Shown one piece after another: positions 31,599-62,581 of a stretch of DNA of 64,000 bases. The stretch comes from an uncultured beta proteobacterium (lineage in GTDB: Bacteria; Pseudomonadota; Gammaproteobacteria; Burkholderiales; Gallionellaceae), in the NCBI GenBank assembly GCA_963757485.1, contig CAVWTZ010000123.1, forward strand, positions 2,051-66,050. Reading direction: 5' to 3'. Numbering within the stretch: position 1 is the first letter of the stretch; each line of letters starts with the position of its first letter. The translations under genes were made by a program, and so were the position numbers. Under the pieces are notes generated by a model. It saw only the letters and a list, made by a program, of their open reading frames with translations, made no database searches and was not told the DNA's origin.

Positions 31599-32081
31599 GT
31601 GACTATGGCCATCATGCGCAACAACGAAGAATTTACAAAATCGATTTTATCGAGATATTTCAACCGGTTTGAGTTGCTCATAACGACCGGCATCATTGTC
31701 CTGATCTCGGTCATGATCCTCGCGGCATTCTGGGGGCTGGCGGTGGAGACATACCATCTGGTCCACCACGGCGCATTCGACAAGCTCGATCACGAGGCAT
31801 TTCAGTCCGCCTTCGGAATGATCATGACATTGCTGATCGCGATCGAGTTCAGCTATACAATCATGAATGCATACATGGGAAAGAGCCGCGAGATAATCGT
31901 GAGAAATGTGGTGCTGGTTTCCATCCTGGCGATTGCCAGAGAGTTCATTGTGTTCGAAGTGGAAACCGTCTCGCCCCTGATCCTGTTTGCGCTGGCTGCT
32001 TCGCTTTTGTCGCTCGGTACTGTCTATTGGCTGATGGGCCGCTTACCATTGCCGGACGAGGATAGATTGCCCGGTGAATAG
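31599..32081 (+). CDS. Phosphate-starvation-inducible PsiE family membrane protein
   Basis: 'FGMIMTLLIAIEF', 'VVLVSILAIAREFIV'. Confidence 0.8.
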   Translation: MTMAIMRNNEEFTKSILSRYFNRFELLITTGIIVLISVMILAAFWGLAVETYHLVHHGAFDKLDHEAFQSAFGMIMTLLIAIEFSYTIMNAYMGKSREIIVRNVVLVSILAIAREFIVFEVETVSPLILFALAASLLSLGTVYWLMGRLPLPDEDRLPGE

Positions 32082-32179
32082 CGGTCCTGCGATTCTTTGT
32101 CATTCGGATCGACCAGGGTGCCGGAATGGAAAATGCCGATATCGGCTCGGTTAGCTGTCCGGAATAAGGAACCTTAACG

Positions 32180-32773
32180 ATGCGCCCCATGCCGCCCGGT
32201 GTCCGGATCATCCTCATCACCACGATCGCCTGCTACCTGCTGCAGATGGGTGCCGGTGACGGAATGATAAGCAGTTTTGCGCTGTGGCCGCTGGGCAGCA
32301 ACTTCATGCCCTGGCAACTGGTGACCTATGCCTTCCTGCACGGCGGCATCATGCATATTGCGTTCAACATGTACGGCCTGTGGCTGTTCGGGCGGGAAGT
32401 CGAATATTTGCTGGGGCGCAGGGTGTTCCTTCAGCTCTATTTCGCCAGCGTGGTATCGGCCGGACTGACGCAGTTGCTGGCCACCGGATACAGCGGCGGT
32501 GTCTATCCGACGATAGGTGCATCCGGCGGCGTGTTCGGCGTGCTGCTCGCATACGGCCTGTTCTTTCCGAACCGGATCATCATGCTGCTGATCCCGCCGG
32601 TTCCCATGCCGGCCCGGGTGTTCGTGTTTCTGTACGCGGGTCTGGAACTGATACTTGGTGTGACCGGGACGGAAGCGGGCGTGGCGCATTTCGCGCATCT
32701 TGGCGGAATGATCGGCGGCTATCTGGTGATACGCCACTGGCGCGGGAGGCCAGGCGGGGGGCGCTGGAATTGA
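32180..32773 (+). CDS. Rhomboid family intramembrane serine protease
   Basis: 'WQLVTYAFLHG..HIAFNM', 'GASG', 'AHLGG'. Confidence 0.95.
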   Translation: MRPMPPGVRIILITTIACYLLQMGAGDGMISSFALWPLGSNFMPWQLVTYAFLHGGIMHIAFNMYGLWLFGREVEYLLGRRVFLQLYFASVVSAGLTQLLATGYSGGVYPTIGASGGVFGVLLAYGLFFPNRIIMLLIPPVPMPARVFVFLYAGLELILGVTGTEAGVAHFAHLGGMIGGYLVIRHWRGRPGGGRWN

Positions 32774-32873
32774 TCGGACCCGTTTCCGTGACCATGGCGG
32801 AATCGGGCAGTGTGCAAACCGGGAGCAAGCCAGGATTCGTTGTTAAAAGTTTAATCAAACAGGAGGATAAATC

Positions 32874-33374
32874 ATGTTAAGCAACCCCATCGACATTTCC
32901 AGCCGCGTAAGTCCCGAACTGTCCGGCTTGATCGAGACCCTGATCGACCAACTGGAGTCCGACGAGCCGGTAACGCTGGCCGCGGTCCGCTCGTTCCTCG
33001 TTCATGGCTTGCCGGCCGGGACGGAAGAAGACGAGGAACTGCATCACTTCGACGTTGACGAGTCGGTCATAGACGAACTGGATGAACTGATCGAGCAGTT
33101 CGGAGAGTCGGCTGCCGCGATGGACTTCATCTATGCCTTTGCCAGCGAAGCGCTTACACGGGTGATAGAAGAAGTCATGGATGACGAGAATCGCGAAAAC
33201 CCGCCAACGCTCCGGGATGTTCATGAGGCGATAGCCGGCGGCCTGGGCGGCAGCCTGGTCGGCGACGGGATACTGGAAGAAGACGAGGACGATGTGCTGA
33301 TGCCCGAGATCGAAAACCTGATCGAGCGTTACGGCCCCGATGCGATGGCGGAGGATTTTTTGCGCTACGAGTAA
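32874..33374 (+). CDS. Highly acidic hypothetical protein with an internal duplication
   Basis: RBS AGGAGG; D/E-rich; two similar ~80-aa halves. Confidence 0.8.
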   Translation: MLSNPIDISSRVSPELSGLIETLIDQLESDEPVTLAAVRSFLVHGLPAGTEEDEELHHFDVDESVIDELDELIEQFGESAAAMDFIYAFASEALTRVIEEVMDDENRENPPTLRDVHEAIAGGLGGSLVGDGILEEDEDDVLMPEIENLIERYGPDAMAEDFLRYE

Positions 33375-33406
33375 CAGCGCAAGCAGCTTGCCTGGTCCGG
33401 CATGGT

Positions 33407-33781
33407 TCAATCCGCCGGATGTCTGAGCCTGCGGCTGTCATTCAGGTTGCCGTGTTCTATCCCCTGGTGCAGTTCCGTCATTACCTGCTGGGAAAATCTC
33501 GGAGTGAAATTATCAAGTGCCGACATCGTCAGCTTGGAAACGATCACCGGCTGGATCAGCACGACAGAAGCGATGCCGCAGATTTCCGCGGACAGGCGGA
33601 AGAACCTTTTTGCGTGGTAAAGCCCGCGCAGATGCGCGCGGTATCTGGACAGCTTCCGGTGCAATGCAACCGCTTCGGCAAACACCATGATCACGCCGCC
33701 CACCAACCCGGTCAGGACGGCCATCTTCAGTTCTATCGCACCCATGTGACCTCCCCCGGCATGCCAATGTATTTCATGCAA
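33407..33781 (-). CDS. Hypothetical membrane protein
   Basis: Two hydrophobic segments; likely start at the internal Met (MGAIEL) after GGAGG. Confidence 0.5.
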   Translation of the reverse strand: MHEIHWHAGGGHMGAIELKMAVLTGLVGGVIMVFAEAVALHRKLSRYRAHLRGLYHAKRFFRLSAEICGIASVVLIQPVIVSKLTMSALDNFTPRFSQQVMTELHQGIEHGNLNDSRRLRHPAD

Positions 33782-33788
33782 ATGTACT

Positions 33789-34580
33789 TAAGGAACCGCT
33801 GATCAAGTCCCGCATGACCGCGCATTCGGCTTTGCGGGGTTGCAGGCCTGACACGGCGGTGCGTAGCACTTGGTGCGGGATGGCCTGCCCGCCCTCGCTC
33901 CCGCAACCGGCTGCTGCGCAGTAACGTGTCGCGAGGGCCATGCAAGAAAGGCGAGGAAGCGAATGGTGATTCGCTTCGCAAGGAGCAGCACCCCCGACGC
34001 GGTGCGCGTAAGCGTCCGGTGCGGGAGGGGGTTGCAAGCGGCTGCTCCCGCAATCGGCTGCTGCGCAGTAACGTGTCGCAGCCGCACGCAGCAGACCGCC
34101 CGCAAAGCCAATGCCCTTGAGGGTTGCGACAAAACGGAGCGAAGCGCAGTTTCGAGGTACGGCCAAAACGGGCGCTCGCGATGTTGCGCTCCTTGGCATA
34201 GCGGCCTTGACACGGTGGGGCGCAGCCCTTTGGTGCGGGAAAGGCCGCTGCCCCCACTCTCGCGCCAGACGGCTCTGCCGCACCGTATCGTGGGGGCAAG
34301 AATAACTGCTGCCATGACACGGTGCGCGAAGCGGCCAGTGCGGGAATGGCAGCAGGCGGCTACTCCCGCAAGCGGCTGGCTATGCCAGTAACGTGTTGTA
34401 GCCGCTACCGGCGTCGCGCGCCTTGCGGTAGACATCGGCTCACGGTACGCGCAGCGCCGGTGTGGAGACGATGCTCCCTCGCCGCTCCCGCAATCGGCCG
34501 TTTCACGGTAACGTGTCGCGGCGAGGATCCCGTTTTTGTCAGCAACGCGGTTCATGAAGGACTTGATCAGCGGTTCCTTA
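33789..34580. mobile_element. Non-coding composite palindromic element (MITE-like) with 22-bp terminal inverted repeats and ten internal hairpin modules
   Basis: TAAGGAACCGCTGATCAAGTCC (33789-33810) and its perfect reverse complement (34559-34580); two long arms; repeated GACACG...TGCGGGA cores. Confidence 0.85.
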
Positions 34581-34740
34581 TAATCATCCGCGCTTCCGTC
34601 CTGAATACTACTATGGCAAAACCGAATCCGCATAGCGGCTTGCCGGACAACGGGCAGATCTGCGGTCGAATGTTGTCAGGGCGCTGGCCGGGTGTTTTGG
34701 CGCTGCGGCACCGCAGGGACAGCGGGAGCCGAGTCGGTTA

Positions 34741-34777
34741 GAATGCGCGGTCATGCGGCACTTGATCAAAGGTTCCT
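34741..34777 (-). repeat. Additional inverted copy of the element's left end
   Basis: Reverse complement matches 33791-33827 at 34 of 37 positions. Confidence 0.85.
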
Positions 34778-34846
34778 CAATGTGCGGCCGCGCGCATGAT
34801 CCGCAAGCTCGCCGCGATACTGTCAACCTGCTAACCTAGGCGATCC

Positions 34847-35770
34847 ATGAAGCTCGTTACACCCATGAAGCTCATTGACCCCAGAACAACTTACGTCGTC
34901 AAAAATCCCGTCGCCTTCGCGCTCGGGGTGCTGAAAGCCTTCCAGGTCAACCAGGGCCTGCTGCTGGCCGGCGCGGTCGCCTACTACGCGCTGCTCTCCA
35001 TCGTGCCGCTGCTGATCCTGATGGTGATCGCGCTGTCGCAGGTGATCGACCAGGAAATGCTGCTGGCGACGCTGAACCGGGCGCTGGAGTATGTTGTGCC
35101 TGGCGAAGGCAGGGCGGTGGTGTTGGAGCTAAAGGCGTTCCTCGGCCACCGCGAGGTGATCGGCTGGGTGCTGTTCGTCACGATGCTGTTCTTCAGCTCG
35201 CTCGGTTTCAAGGTGCTGGAGAGTGCGATCTCGGTGATCTTTCTGCACCGGGTGGAGAAGCGCAAGCGGCACATCGTCGTTTCCCTGCTGCTGCCCTTCG
35301 GCTATATCTTTTTCATCGGCGCGGTGCTGTTCGTCGGCACGTTCGTGATTGTCGACCTGTCGGCGATGGGCGGAGAGCATATTGTTATCCTCGGGTATAG
35401 CTGGTCGCTGGGCGGCTTCTCGCGCTGGCTGATCTACGTTGCCGGCGTGCTCGGGGAGATCCTGCTCATTTCCGCGATCTACTATTTCATGCCGGTGGGC
35501 AGGCTGTCGGCGCATCACGCGCTGATCGGCGGCACTGCGGCAGCCCTGCTCTGGGAAATCATCCGCCATGCGCTTGGCTGGTATTTCGGCACGCTGTCGC
35601 AGGTGAGCGTGGTGTACGGCTCGCTCACCACGGCCATCATCGTGCTGCTCAGCATGGAAGTGGCCGCCACGCTGCTGTTGCTGGGCGCGCAGGTCATCGC
35701 GGAATACGAACGCATCGAGATCGGCGCGCCGCCCGACCAGGCGGTGCCGGCATGCAGCGCCGGCGGATGA
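34847..35770 (+). CDS. YihY / BrkB family membrane protein
   Basis: 'LAGAVAYYALLSIVP', 'VVYGSL...LLLLGAQ'. Confidence 0.92.
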   Translation: MKLVTPMKLIDPRTTYVVKNPVAFALGVLKAFQVNQGLLLAGAVAYYALLSIVPLLILMVIALSQVIDQEMLLATLNRALEYVVPGEGRAVVLELKAFLGHREVIGWVLFVTMLFFSSLGFKVLESAISVIFLHRVEKRKRHIVVSLLLPFGYIFFIGAVLFVGTFVIVDLSAMGGEHIVILGYSWSLGGFSRWLIYVAGVLGEILLISAIYYFMPVGRLSAHHALIGGTAAALLWEIIRHALGWYFGTLSQVSVVYGSLTTAIIVLLSMEVAATLLLLGAQVIAEYERIEIGAPPDQAVPACSAGG

Positions 35771-35983
35771 ATCTGCCGCTGCTTAATCTGTTTGCCCCGG
35801 TATTCACGGGGCCGGCCTTCATCCACCGGGGGGCACGCCTGACCAAGCTGCGTCAGGCGTCACAGGGAAGGCATTATCTTATCGGCAGACAGTGCGCGCG
35901 GATGATCGATTACCGGCTTGCTATCGTCCACCGGAAAGCGTTGCGCCCCCCGGCGCGGGCCGCATCATCGGGAAGCAGGGCGA

Positions 35984-36406
35984 TCATTTTCCGTCGAGAA
36001 CGGTTACATGATTGACGAAGGTGAGGCTGGGGAAGGTGCGGTTCAATGCTTTGCTGGTGAAGTTAGCCACGGTTGAGCCGCTGTCAAACTCGATGACATC
36101 CCCCTTTTTTGCACTGACCGTCGAGGCGGCAATCCAGCGGGACTGGCCGTTCTGCGTGACTTCCAGATAGGTGAATTGGGGTATGTTGATGATGCTGACT
36201 ACCGTGCCCTTTTCCGACTGGAAGGCTCCAGGCATCCTGGCGAGCGCATCAGCCTGGCTATTGGGATTGATGGCAGGGTGACCGGCGGGCAAGGTGCCCG
36301 AAGACGGTATCACCGGATCAGGAACGAAGGGTTCTTCAGCGGGCTTTTTGCTGCATGCCGCGAGGGAAAACATGGCCAGCGCTGCGACGATCGCAATATT
36401 TCTCAT
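35984..36406 (-). CDS. Lipoprotein with a putative OB-fold domain
   Basis: Lipobox 'LAAC', 'LPAGHP', 'FTYLEV...WIAA', 'FTSKALNRTF'. Confidence 0.75.
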   Translation of the reverse strand: MRNIAIVAALAMFSLAACSKKPAEEPFVPDPVIPSSGTLPAGHPAINPNSQADALARMPGAFQSEKGTVVSIINIPQFTYLEVTQNGQSRWIAASTVSAKKGDVIEFDSGSTVANFTSKALNRTFPSLTFVNHVTVLDGK

Positions 36407-36757
36407 TTTGCTTCCTTGGATTGTAGTGACGAATGGCCAATACTACTCAAAAAACGGCCCGTCTTGAAAGTTTTTCTTGATGGCATGCGAACGGACCTGC
36501 CCGGGCAGGATTTCAACACGGCGGTTTGTCATTGCTGTCATGCAAGCGATGAACCGTTTGCGGCCGGCATTTGCCGCCGGTATATTTTTCCGTGGTAAAA
36601 AACCGGATGGCCTGATAGATTAGGTGCGGGCATATTTGCAAATACCCTGTCGTGGTGAGGACCGGGAAAGTGTTATGCAATTCTGCCGGGCGGCATTCAA
36701 TACGGGCGTCAGCCATCAGTTACCGGCAAGCCGGAATATAAACGGAATGGGGGATTA

Positions 36758-41010: not shown

Positions 41011-42012
41011 TCAGGCCTCGTATATCAGGCGATCGTCACCATAAATCAGCCTGGTGCCGAATTCGGTACACAGCATTTCCATGTGCGCGCAGATCGCCTC
41101 GAATTCGCCGCCGCGCGCCAGCGCGACATGGGCCACGCTCAGCGACACCGGCAGCAGTTCGATGCGGGACAGCTTGCCGCGCTCGACCATCACTTTGAAC
41201 AGACAGGAGCGGTCGTTGCGCAGCAGCGGATTGACGGCGTAGTCGTCGATGAAATTGCCGGTGTCGTAGAGTATCGGCTTGCCCCGGTATATCTCGATAC
41301 CCTGGCAGATATGCGCGCTATGGCCGTGGTAGATGTCGGCGCCGAGTTCGATCACGCGCCTGGCGAAGCTGCGGAATTTGGATGAAGGGCGTTCGACGAA
41401 ATTCGCCCCCCAGTGGTTGGAGAACACCACCAGGTCGGCACCCTGCGCACGTGCATTTTCAATGTCGTTTGCGATGCGTGCCAGCGTTGCCTCATCCGGC
41501 GAGACTTCCAGGTAGTTGGTGCCGGGGTGATCTGCACCGGCGGCAAAAACCGGTTCGTTGTCCGTGTAGGAAAGCAACGCAACGCGGCACGGCGCAGCAC
41601 CGGCTTCTTCCGGTGACCCGGGTTCGATCATCGCCGGGGCGGCAGCCTGTTCCGTATCGACCCCGGCAGCCGGCATGGCGGATGCCGGCCGCGTCGAGCA
41701 CGCGCAAGGTGTCGCGCATGCCCTGTACTTCGTAATCGAGGATGTGGTTGTTGGCGAGCGTGCAGGCGTCGATGTCGCAACCTGCAGCACGCGCACGGCC
41801 CCGGGGTCGGCGCAGGAATGGAACATCTTCCAGGTGCGTGACCAGGGCTGGAGATGGGCGGTGAGGGCGCATTCCAGATTGACGATGCGCAAATCGGCCT
41901 GCGCCGGATGCGGCAGCACGTCGCCCCACACTTGTTCCGGTTGCATGCGCGCGAGCCTTTCGTTGACCAGGCGGCCCAGCATTATGTCTCCGGTAAAGGC
42001 TAGCGTTAGCAT
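41011..42012 (-). pseudogene. CapA (PGA_cap) metallophosphoesterase with compensating frameshifts at ~41660-41780
   Basis: 'FTGDIMLGR', 'VNLEC', 'HWG', 'HGHSAH', 'GNFIDDY' in the main frame; the required 'LANNHILDY' motif is in another frame. Confidence 0.8.
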
Positions 42013-61564: not shown

Positions 61565-62581
61565 ATGAAGAAGTATATCGGAATTGATTTGCATTCGAAC
61601 AACAGTGTAGTGGTTGTAGCCGATGAAGAAGATCGAATTCTTTATCAAAAGCGTCTAGCAAATAATCTGAATGAAATACTGACGGCGCTTGCACCTCATC
61701 GAAATGAAACGGTTGGTGTAGTGGTCGAATCGACCTACAACTGGTATTGGTTAATTGATGGCTTGATGGATGCGGGGTATCAGGCGCACTTGGCACACCC
61801 ATCAGCGATGAAGAAATATGAAGGACTGAAGTACAGCGGAGATTTTGCCGATGCTGCCTATCTGGCGCATCTGCTTCGCCTGGGATTATTACCTGAGGGC
61901 TATATTTTCCCACGTGAATTGCGTGCCATACGAGATCTTGGGCGCAAGCGGATGCAACTGGTTCGCTGTCGAACGATGCAGATTCTATCCATCGAGAATA
62001 CTCTGGCGAGGGAAACCGGCGGACGAATGGATAAACGCCAAATCAAGGCAATGACGGCCGAAGGAATTGAGGCGTTAGGGTTGAAATCCGATGTGGCGTT
62101 GGCAATGGAGTCTAACCGGGTAGTCTGCCAAGCACTGCAACAACAGATAGTAGTGTTGGAGAAACGATTGGAAGAACAGGTCAAATTGCAGGCCGAATAC
62201 CAGTTGGTCAAGACAATACCGGGCATAGGACAGATACTGGCTACTACGATCATGCTCGAAACGGGGACAATTTCGCGCTTTGCTAATGTCGGGAACTTCA
62301 GTTCCTACTGTCGGTGTGTAGACAGTCTGCATGAAAGCAACGGCAAGAAGAAAGGCTCTGGTAACGCCAAGAACGGAAATAAATATCTGGCGTGGGCATT
62401 CTTGGAAGCGGCAAACTTTGCATTACGGTTTTGCCCGGAAGCGAAACGATTTTATGAGCGCAAGAAGAATCGTACCAATCGCGTCGTGGCGCTCAAGTCC
62501 GTTGCGCACAAACTGGCACGGGCATGTTATTACATTCTGCGAGAGCAGCAGCCTTTCGATGTGAAGAGATGTTTTGTTTAG
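61565..62581 (+). CDS. IS110-family DEDD transposase/recombinase
   Basis: 'GIDLH', 'VEST', 'DFADA', 'TIPGIG', 'ESNGK', 'KNGNKYLAWAF'. Confidence 0.95.
   Translation: MKKYIGIDLHSNNSVVVVADEEDRILYQKRLANNLNEILTALAPHRNETVGVVVESTYNWYWLIDGLMDAGYQAHLAHPSAMKKYEGLKYSGDFADAAYLAHLLRLGLLPEGYIFPRELRAIRDLGRKRMQLVRCRTMQILSIENTLARETGGRMDKRQIKAMTAEGIEALGLKSDVALAMESNRVVCQALQQQIVVLEKRLEEQVKLQAEYQLVKTIPGIGQILATTIMLETGTISRFANVGNFSSYCRCVDSLHESNGKKKGSGNAKNGNKYLAWAFLEAANFALRFCPEAKRFYERKKNRTNRVVALKSVAHKLARACYYILREQQPFDVKRCFV

Follow-up and report, generated by a model that had tools for sequence, protein, structure and literature searches.

Inverted-doublet insertions of 96-99 bp with covarying arms, nested in a miniature inverted-repeat element and in genes of Gallionellaceae and related bacteria

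The ten structured modules found at 33842..34526 of the window (the whole 64,000-nt stretch of DNA that was analysed) are probably five copies of a 96-99 bp insertion, whose end arms pair with an internal copy. This element likely uses single-stranded DNA folds, its enzyme would be encoded elsewhere, and the internal copy likely also biases the choice of target. We observed its anatomy and found it precisely present or absent at many sites; it is retained in frame in genes, both of its closing stems covary, and it is nested in a miniature inverted-repeat element (MITE) that we take to be of the IS5 type. Copies also occupy dozens of housekeeping genes in iron-oxidising bacteria and their relatives, mostly leaving the frame intact. 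The element is real and apparently undescribed, and stands between the REPINs and the Rickettsia palindromic elements (RPEs). The features of the array are the following:

33792..34577, no strand: MITE with five doublets, 786 bp, with terminal inverted repeats
33792..33810, + strand: left terminal inverted repeat (GGAACC...AAGTCC), with TTAA before it at 33788-33791
33842..33938, + strand: doublet 1, with A at 33850-33880 (+), an 18-nt middle and B at 33899-33930 (-); both cores GC
33988..34085, + strand: doublet 2, with A at 33996-34026 (+), a 19-nt middle and B at 34046-34077 (-)
34132..34164, no strand: extra insertion of 33 nt in the MITE scaffold, unrelated to the modules (joint 34131-34165, by alignment)
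34201..34297, + strand: doublet 3, with A at 34209-34240 (+), a 17-nt middle and a degenerate A-like module at 34258-34289 (-)
34308..34405, + strand: doublet 4, with A at 34316-34345 (+), an 18-nt middle and B at 34364-34397 (-)
34430..34525, + strand: doublet 5, with a degenerate A at 34438-34468 (+) and B at 34486-34517 (-); AG cores
34559..34577, - strand: right terminal inverted repeat, with TTAT after it at 34578-34581, like the left flank in 3/4 bases

The original prediction had placed ten cores here, and all of them were recovered at the same positions and strands, five per strand, each closed by the inverted repeat assigned to it. The ten modules thus stand, but the real unit is the inverted pair (hereafter doublet) and not the single module. 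Likewise, the one consensus core was replaced by two types, A (GACACGGT...GTGCGGGA) and B (GACACGTT...TTGCGGGA), which are arranged tail to tail with 17-19 bases between them, a fixed spacing that had not been described for the window pairs. The inner loops, said to be mostly GNA triloops, are so in 7/10 modules (GTA, GCA in four, GAA in two), but not in 33996, which has a four-base loop, nor in 34258 and 34364, where the loop is degenerate. The closing stems do differ in sequence; their length is, however, not 5-10 bp but 8 bp with a shared dinucleotide at the end, which is GC, or AG in pair 5. Two modules of the window, 34258 and 34438, are degenerate. The exact core pattern matched twice in the window and never in 100 shuffles, and is thus not expected by chance. 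The 696-nt array had a DNA folding z of -3.8, and the genome (G000) holds 66 module matches, with copies outside the array. Neither these copies nor the terminal inverted repeats had been noted before. The array is flanked by a small hypothetical ORF and a YihY/BrkB-family gene, and four ORFs overlapping it had no Pfam match. A search of Rfam over 32000-36500 gave four weak matches, none near the gathering score. Elsewhere in the window, an ORF at 41011-42012 (-), which we take from its translation to be CapA-like, looks frameshifted, with overlapping partial frames at 41492-41929.

The carrier MITE has terminal inverted repeats of about 19 bp starting with GGAA, and 4-bp YTAR-like target repeats. 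Perfect 4-bp flanking repeats were present in 8 of the MITE copies listed, and 3/4 bases agree at the window copy; the repeats at other copies were TTAT, TTAG, TTAA, CTAA, CTAG and CAAG. Copies on five contigs of G000 (C96, C57, C62, C50 and C72) differ in doublet number. Across G000 and other genomes the MITE grows by about 96 bp at a time, the pair-free form having 273-275 bp and the larger ones 364-375, 464, 558-561 and 786 bp, with a few sizes off these steps (497, 580-584 and 624 bp). By alignment, the window MITE equals the short form plus five pairs and the 33-base extra. In a contig of a related strain, 33773 is joined to 34580 and the MITE is absent. The MITE ends appear to resemble those of the IS5 group, and we presume that it belongs to the IS5 family. 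Around DDE or DUF772 matches, 18 loci were examined and none held a transposase with these ends, G000 being 81% complete. The MITE persists in G466, which has no DUF772 transposase, so resident enzymes need not be present. Genes between paired MITEs at two loci (L078 and L441) were ordinary. As in IS5-family MITEs (reviewed in PMC10969869), the carrier, which we presume to be one of them, has terminal inverted repeats and 4-bp target repeats; unlike them, it is built of two larger folded arms and gains doublets in 96-bp steps. In the pair-free 275-bp MITE (L078:3415-3690) these two larger arms are related and inverted, and doublets insert in their internal loops. A 40-base piece of the MITE left end, made up of the inverted repeat and the bases that follow it, lies at 34741-34780 (-), about 160 bases past the element. 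Furthermore, seven contigs of G000 (C48, C70, C86, C119, C124, C150 and C171) carry other MITE families that have different terminal repeats and the same modules.

The layout of the doublet was fixed in 148 copies and reads core-a-A-a'-core'-short linker-core'-b'-B reversed-b-core. The unit spans 94-99 bp: GC, a 6-nt arm a, module A, an 18-19 nt middle containing a' and b', module B on the other strand, a 6-nt arm b and GC. Arm b had 6 nt and arm a usually 6, sometimes 7. The middle measured 17-19 nt in 292/292 rows and 18-19 nt in 291, doublets being mostly counted on both strands. Across eight positions the arms pair with the middle in 91-99% of the 148 doublets, which comprise 57 kinds of a and 42 of b. 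Arms begin with a variable base followed by GC; recurring ones are a = GGCCAC (12 rows) and b = GGAGGT (28/148). GG and AG core variants are matched by core' in the middle, and tandem copies have one common 14-nt b-core-a junction. To count independent sites we kept one cluster per flank group and excluded clusters of more than seven copies as well as tandem-flanked rows, which left 67. Among these, the ninth arm pair was enriched on both sides (66% vs 31% and 52% vs 27%) and the tenth was not, and 43 had a GC core at both ends.

Covariation had been read as selection on a fold. When this was checked in 57 sequences, 16/16 closing-stem pairs changed on both sides and 97% of cells paired, whereas pairing in shuffled and slid controls was far lower. 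RNAalifold recovered the same two closing stems unprompted, and the alternative cruciform fold of A with B showed invariant columns only and no covariation. Copies at the same site included 20 compensated and 44 one-sided arm variants, from which it follows that pairing was restored after insertion by selection, repair or replacement. The covariation is therefore upheld, but not selection as its sole reading, since repair or conversion between copies fits as well. The 67 independent sites carry 58 different a'/b' combinations, which show that the arms apparently change fast. Distant copies have varied cores and are nested in one another. A 137-base doublet was seen at four loci (L441, L442, L453 and L548), in which the a'-linker-b' middle is doubled around a 14-18 base spacer, giving one spare copy of each internal arm. 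In addition, the inner hairpin of module B holds an insert, a third structured motif some 60 bases long, at L003, L006, L024:3650 and G000 C171:11666; the motif occurs in many genomes (model matches of 167-169 bases) and in other MITEs, and stands free on G000 C70 and C119.

GNA triloops are stable in DNA. The inner loops of 191 distinct cores were GNA triloops in 126 cases and GNNA in 27, and the GNA loops lie on the top strand for A and on the bottom strand for B. Wobbles in the A stems were 23 G-T vs 7 A-C, and in the B stems 20 G-T vs 14 A-C with little strand bias. The proposal of a single-stranded DNA motif used on both strands thus agrees with the count of 126/191 and with the opposite strands of A and B. 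Judged from these loops, the modules are likely read as single-stranded DNA folds, one per strand. Tandem G-A pairs and an extrahelical base are predicted within modules A and B.

That the modules belong to a REPIN-like mobile unit with copies elsewhere was borne out by empty sites and by copies in other loci and genomes. A static protein-binding array or an aptamer, the other options offered, found no support, because the pairs are insertions with empty sites. Removal of the stretch from a through the right core gave a collinear empty allele for 97/147 doublets, with a net gap of 0 in 57. Empty orthologs, only 70-88% identical and at sites that are not fully independent, were found for 40 of the 67 sites. 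Their net insertion was 99 bases in 23, 96 in 8 and a multiple of three in 34; by the same measure about 60% of all units are already 3n, and the bias is hence partly intrinsic. Metagenome contigs skip window pairs 2, 3 and 5 (33987-34085, 34200-34298 and 34428-34526), each as 99 bases with three other letters instead. MITE copies without doublet 1 exist, and empty MITE scaffolds were found for doublet 4. The empty sites in the MITE scaffold have no GC core; the target is replaced, not duplicated. One empty allele, on C104, gave a net +98 at a junction too diverged to fix the ends.

Among 165 doublets there were 59 distinct copies within ORFs, 38 of them sense with a common GAG...LLPQ...NVS peptide and 21 antisense. 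Host genes by Pfam include RlmN, GHMP kinase and HhH-GPD, and from translations we take others to be hrpA, recG, gltD, mfd, aspS and aroA. Peptide-level duplications flank many of the inserts, and a Bro-N gene is split by one 98-base copy. At coupled gene junctions, b-GC-a-GA often reads as a Shine-Dalgarno sequence followed by ATGA. Junction duplications occur on G000 C180. At L415 (C180:2113-2334), a gene junction of an ABC transporter holds a tandem array of three units, each about 95 bases long, in which the ribosome-binding site and ATGA are repeated; in these units the A module is paired with a different second module. A similar gene-junction repeat with another core was seen in G335 (L320). 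At a gene junction of a viral, probably prophage, contig (L639:2870-3070), a GTAG REP pair replaces the middle of one doublet beside an intact doublet. G000 C60 (L419, 3436-3629) has repeats of the 3' end of an alanyl-tRNA synthetase gene, in which every 160-base unit contains a B module on its own.

We then compared the targets with the internal copies. The core of the empty site was GC in 13 of 26 gap-free empty alleles, against a background of 11%. In these alleles, linker pairing of the base immediately to the right of the core reached 62%, vs 30% after shuffling (p 0.0006), and agreement of the right target half with a' came to 2.65/6 positions vs 1.84 (p 0.0002). On the left the effect is weaker: the first base pairs in 58% vs 43% (p 0.03), and the left target half of the empty alleles was not significant (2.31 vs 2.20). 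With alleles of only 70-88% identity and non-independent kin, these p values overstate the significance. Both halves were significant in filled alleles. One side matched at 5-6 of 6 positions in 24% vs 7%, also when each arm family was represented by a single site and when junction copies were left out, and both sides matched at 4 of 6 or more in only 7%. Flanks thus resemble the internal copies above chance, but only partly and weakly, at about 2.7/6 per side. The same arms recur at unrelated targets and so are not simply target copies. Near the end of rho, at L454:1431-1680, a 75-base stretch is present twice with a diverged doublet in between, and the rho coding sequence at the junction has an exact complement in an internal 8-mer of this doublet.

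In the mechanism that we favour, each module would be recognised as a single-stranded DNA fold on its own strand, and the enzyme would cut either strand at the outer dinucleotide (usually GC), which lies on the 5' side of the module folded there. Transfer probably involves a circular form of the unit, closed by a 14-bp b-GC-a junction like the one read from contig sequence in tandem copies. A covalent 5' link (HUH-like chemistry) seems favoured because three MITE sites show about three target bases replaced and not duplicated. Base pairing with the middle likely also biases the target. An insert of 96 or 99 bases adds an open peptide of 32-33 residues, which may be why copies survive in genes; at coupled gene junctions they may persist because b-GC-a-GA can often be read as a ribosome-binding site plus ATGA. 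A further step, tentative and on balance rather doubtful, is that the element guides itself: the 18-19 base middle would be a DNA guide that pairs its own junction and the target around a programmable dinucleotide and is rewritten during spread, with a recombinase or host enzyme outside the families tested (RAYT, IS110, serine, Ssn and reverse-transcriptase). The target comparisons leave this guide hypothesis modestly supported. If it were true, the element would be a protein-tagging transposon, inserting a 33-residue peptide in frame or giving gene junctions a second ribosome-binding site.

No mobilising enzyme was found beside the copies by ORF clustering or by Pfam and tblastn neighbour screens. 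When 114 of the 221 listed neighbour ORFs were compared with Pfam, one ISAzo13-type transposase appeared near one G024 copy, and for a set of 64 ORFs there was no enzyme among the best 25 of 94 families. When enzyme ORFs were run by tblastn against 224 module loci, the matches were limited to two RAYTs, XerC/D-like genes and an overlap with rho; the RAYTs, near two doublets, carry GTAG REPs of their own. A co-occurring RAYT/HUH gene had been suggested as something to look for, but 30 Y1_Tnp loci contained no module, and PF01797 (HUH Y1) was not found in G027, G014, G011, G466, G519 and G455, which, like the other genomes screened for enzymes, are drafts in which repeats may be unassembled. Five of them (G027, G466, G519, G455 and G014) are well stocked with the element and all lack HUH Y1 transposases. 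An IS110 gene (PF01548) was likewise absent from G027, G013, G023, G466, G455 and G519, and no module was present in 30 IS110 loci. The window itself has an IS110-family DEDD domain at 61577-62008 (+), in a 343-codon frame with no module beside it. PF05598 (DUF772) is missing from G466, and PF01609, searched in the own genome only, gave no enzyme candidate. Reverse transcriptase (PF00078) was present in 1/5 carriers and serine recombinase (PF00239) in 1/11 carriers vs 5/7 comparison genomes. For GIY-YIG (PF01541), 30 loci contained no module and G466 has a UvrC-length match only. PF00589 is present in all genomes and hence uninformative, and PF04986 was found in 0/5 carriers with controls equally silent. 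G466, 98% complete and with 36 matches, has no HUH Y1, IS110, serine recombinase, reverse transcriptase, DUF772 or small GIY-YIG gene; each of these six families is missing from at least one well-stocked, nearly complete carrier.

Several other explanations have to be weighed against this mechanism. The element could be an ordinary doublet of REPIN type whose transposase, a diverged HUH enzyme or another, was transient; the covariation would then come from palindrome-perfecting template switches and conversion between copies, and the target likeness from passive microhomology. Its inverted architecture is that of REPINs (PMC3116915), compensated changes do arise among same-site copies (20 vs 44 one-sided), target matching is mostly one-sided, with both sides at 4 of 6 or more in only 7%, and the MITE persists in G466 without a DUF772 transposase. 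We nevertheless regard this reading as possible but doubtful: there is no GT[AG]G foot, the whole-doublet hairpin does not covary, pairing on either side has a sharp limit at position nine, and empty alleles likewise match the ninth base on the right, which is more like a defined read-out than diffuse homology. Alternatively, the arms could be written from the target at each insertion, by an 8-9 bp duplication and a fold-back inverted copy, and decay later. The 58 a'/b' combinations at 67 sites, the peptide-level duplications at many inserts, the perfect rho 8-mer match and the junction duplications in G000 C180 would all suit such writing, but the same arms sit at unrelated targets in several distinct genes, and the empty left half is no closer to b than chance, which makes it unlikely.

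Were the unit a non-autonomous IS110-type element, its 14-bp junction would contain a central dinucleotide, its inverted repeats would be sub-terminal, 6 bp inside the ends, and a bridge-like RNA would help recombination. IS110 elements do have a circular form, sub-terminal repeats and a core dinucleotide common to both pairings (PMC11208160), and the core of our element changes along with the internal copies (GG and AG cores). We consider this quite improbable, as a' and b' complement the same strand while bridge guides read opposite strands, and as the IS110 gene is absent from the six genomes named above and the module from 30 IS110 loci. Most improbable of all is that the module acts as RNA, be it an aptamer, a protein-binding site or a self-splicing insert. 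Conserved internal-loop motifs within covarying stems, tolerated insertion in essential genes and the preference of A stems for G-T on the sense strand point that way. However, A and B face opposite directions, the loops are GNA triloops and not GNRA, copies lie in genes in both orientations (38 vs 21), no Rfam family matches, and the net 3n length in 34/40, itself partly intrinsic, is not needed by a spliced insert.

Both hairpins of IS608 work on one strand. With regard to known systems, IS608 (IS200/IS605; PMC6006769) reads its cleavage site by pairing with element bases and has a circular single-stranded intermediate, and could serve as the model for the proposed guide; its guide is 4 nt, whereas our element pairs over 8-9 nt, folds on opposite strands and shows no tracking with TnpA. 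The element resembles REPINs (PMC3116915, PMC6006769) in being a short non-autonomous inverted doublet with single-stranded DNA hairpins, tandem or nested clusters and a patchy occurrence within the genus. In contrast to REPINs, it has two unlike modules, each with its own variable closing stem, and neither a GT[AG]G foot nor a RAYT association. A loose scan gave five GGAG/GTAG matches, of which three straddle the core end and arm and two lie 5' of stems 2 and 8, so that there is no shared foot. REPs are mostly extragenic, whereas doublets often lie in frame inside genes. This habit is shared with RPEs, which are small palindromes in frame in many unrelated housekeeping genes with a conserved peptide (PMC10969869). 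RPEs, of about 150 bp and in Rickettsia, are set apart from the present element, which has 96-99 bp, occurs in Betaproteobacteria and has covarying copy-specific arms and an internal copy complementary to them. IS110/IS1111 elements with bridge RNA (PMC11208160) are alike in the central dinucleotide common to left and right pairings, in sub-terminal inverted repeats and in repeating at most the core on insertion. Unlike them, our element contains no recombinase gene or RNA, its internal copies complement one strand, and its conserved parts are loops and its variable parts stems.

Two further candidates were rejected. For the Ssn-related motif (NTS/SRM; PMC11893778), which is adjacent to a small GIY-YIG gene, there was no SRM match in the element and no module in 30 GIY-YIG loci, and for integron attC there was no RYYYAAC...GTTRRRY match in the element, whose modules are inverted and not a direct array. 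R178 of Pseudomonas, a 101-bp repeat with internal repeats, is described in PMC2718517. The element lacks defining features of REP, SRM, attC and IS110. By analogy, its inverted layout may be called REPIN-like and its coding habit RPE-like, and its proposed read-out would be IS608-like. No description of it was found in the literature covered, which is mostly open-access and whose supplements may list it as a repeat family.

The in-frame colonisation of essential genes, known from Rickettsia, is hereby extended to free-living Betaproteobacteria, and such inserts can mislead gene annotation. Moreover, strong covariation in a bacterial repeat can mark mobile DNA instead of RNA. The element is a small and exact substrate for testing: its arms pair over a constant 8-9 bp, and both a core dinucleotide and empty sites are known. 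If the middle acts as a guide, there would be an unrecognised DNA-guided insertion reaction and enzyme, relevant to programmable insertion.

The strict doublet pattern occurred in 116 genome stretches in a quarter of the collection, from which about 510 are estimated overall. Among the 80 matches listed, 55 titles are of Gallionellaceae genera, and most others are beta-proteobacteria or Nitrosomonadales. A covariance model, as had been suggested, was built and matched in 15/24 genomes of the genus and, across the order, in 16/101 genomes from ten families; apart from G000, seven of the latter had 18-37 matches over the two strands. Carriers include G024, G023, G000, G027, G466, G455, G506, G507, G509 and G519, as well as the cultured Ferrigenium (complete record L048) and Ferriphaselus (L033), whereas G012, G004, G008 and G019 are close relatives that do not carry the element. 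Stricter filters were applied to a draw from the whole phylum, where 0/140 other genomes matched, and the plasmid and phage collections gave no match to the element. In viral contigs, the closing stem was present in 2/120 single-module matches and 4/8 doublet matches were real. The exact pattern was found class-wide in 14/401 genomes, mostly as chance singles, with real modules in G124 and G335. G124 lies outside the order and has single A modules in another MITE, a high-copy element of about 290 bases (L323-L344) in which the one A module has a short closing stem.
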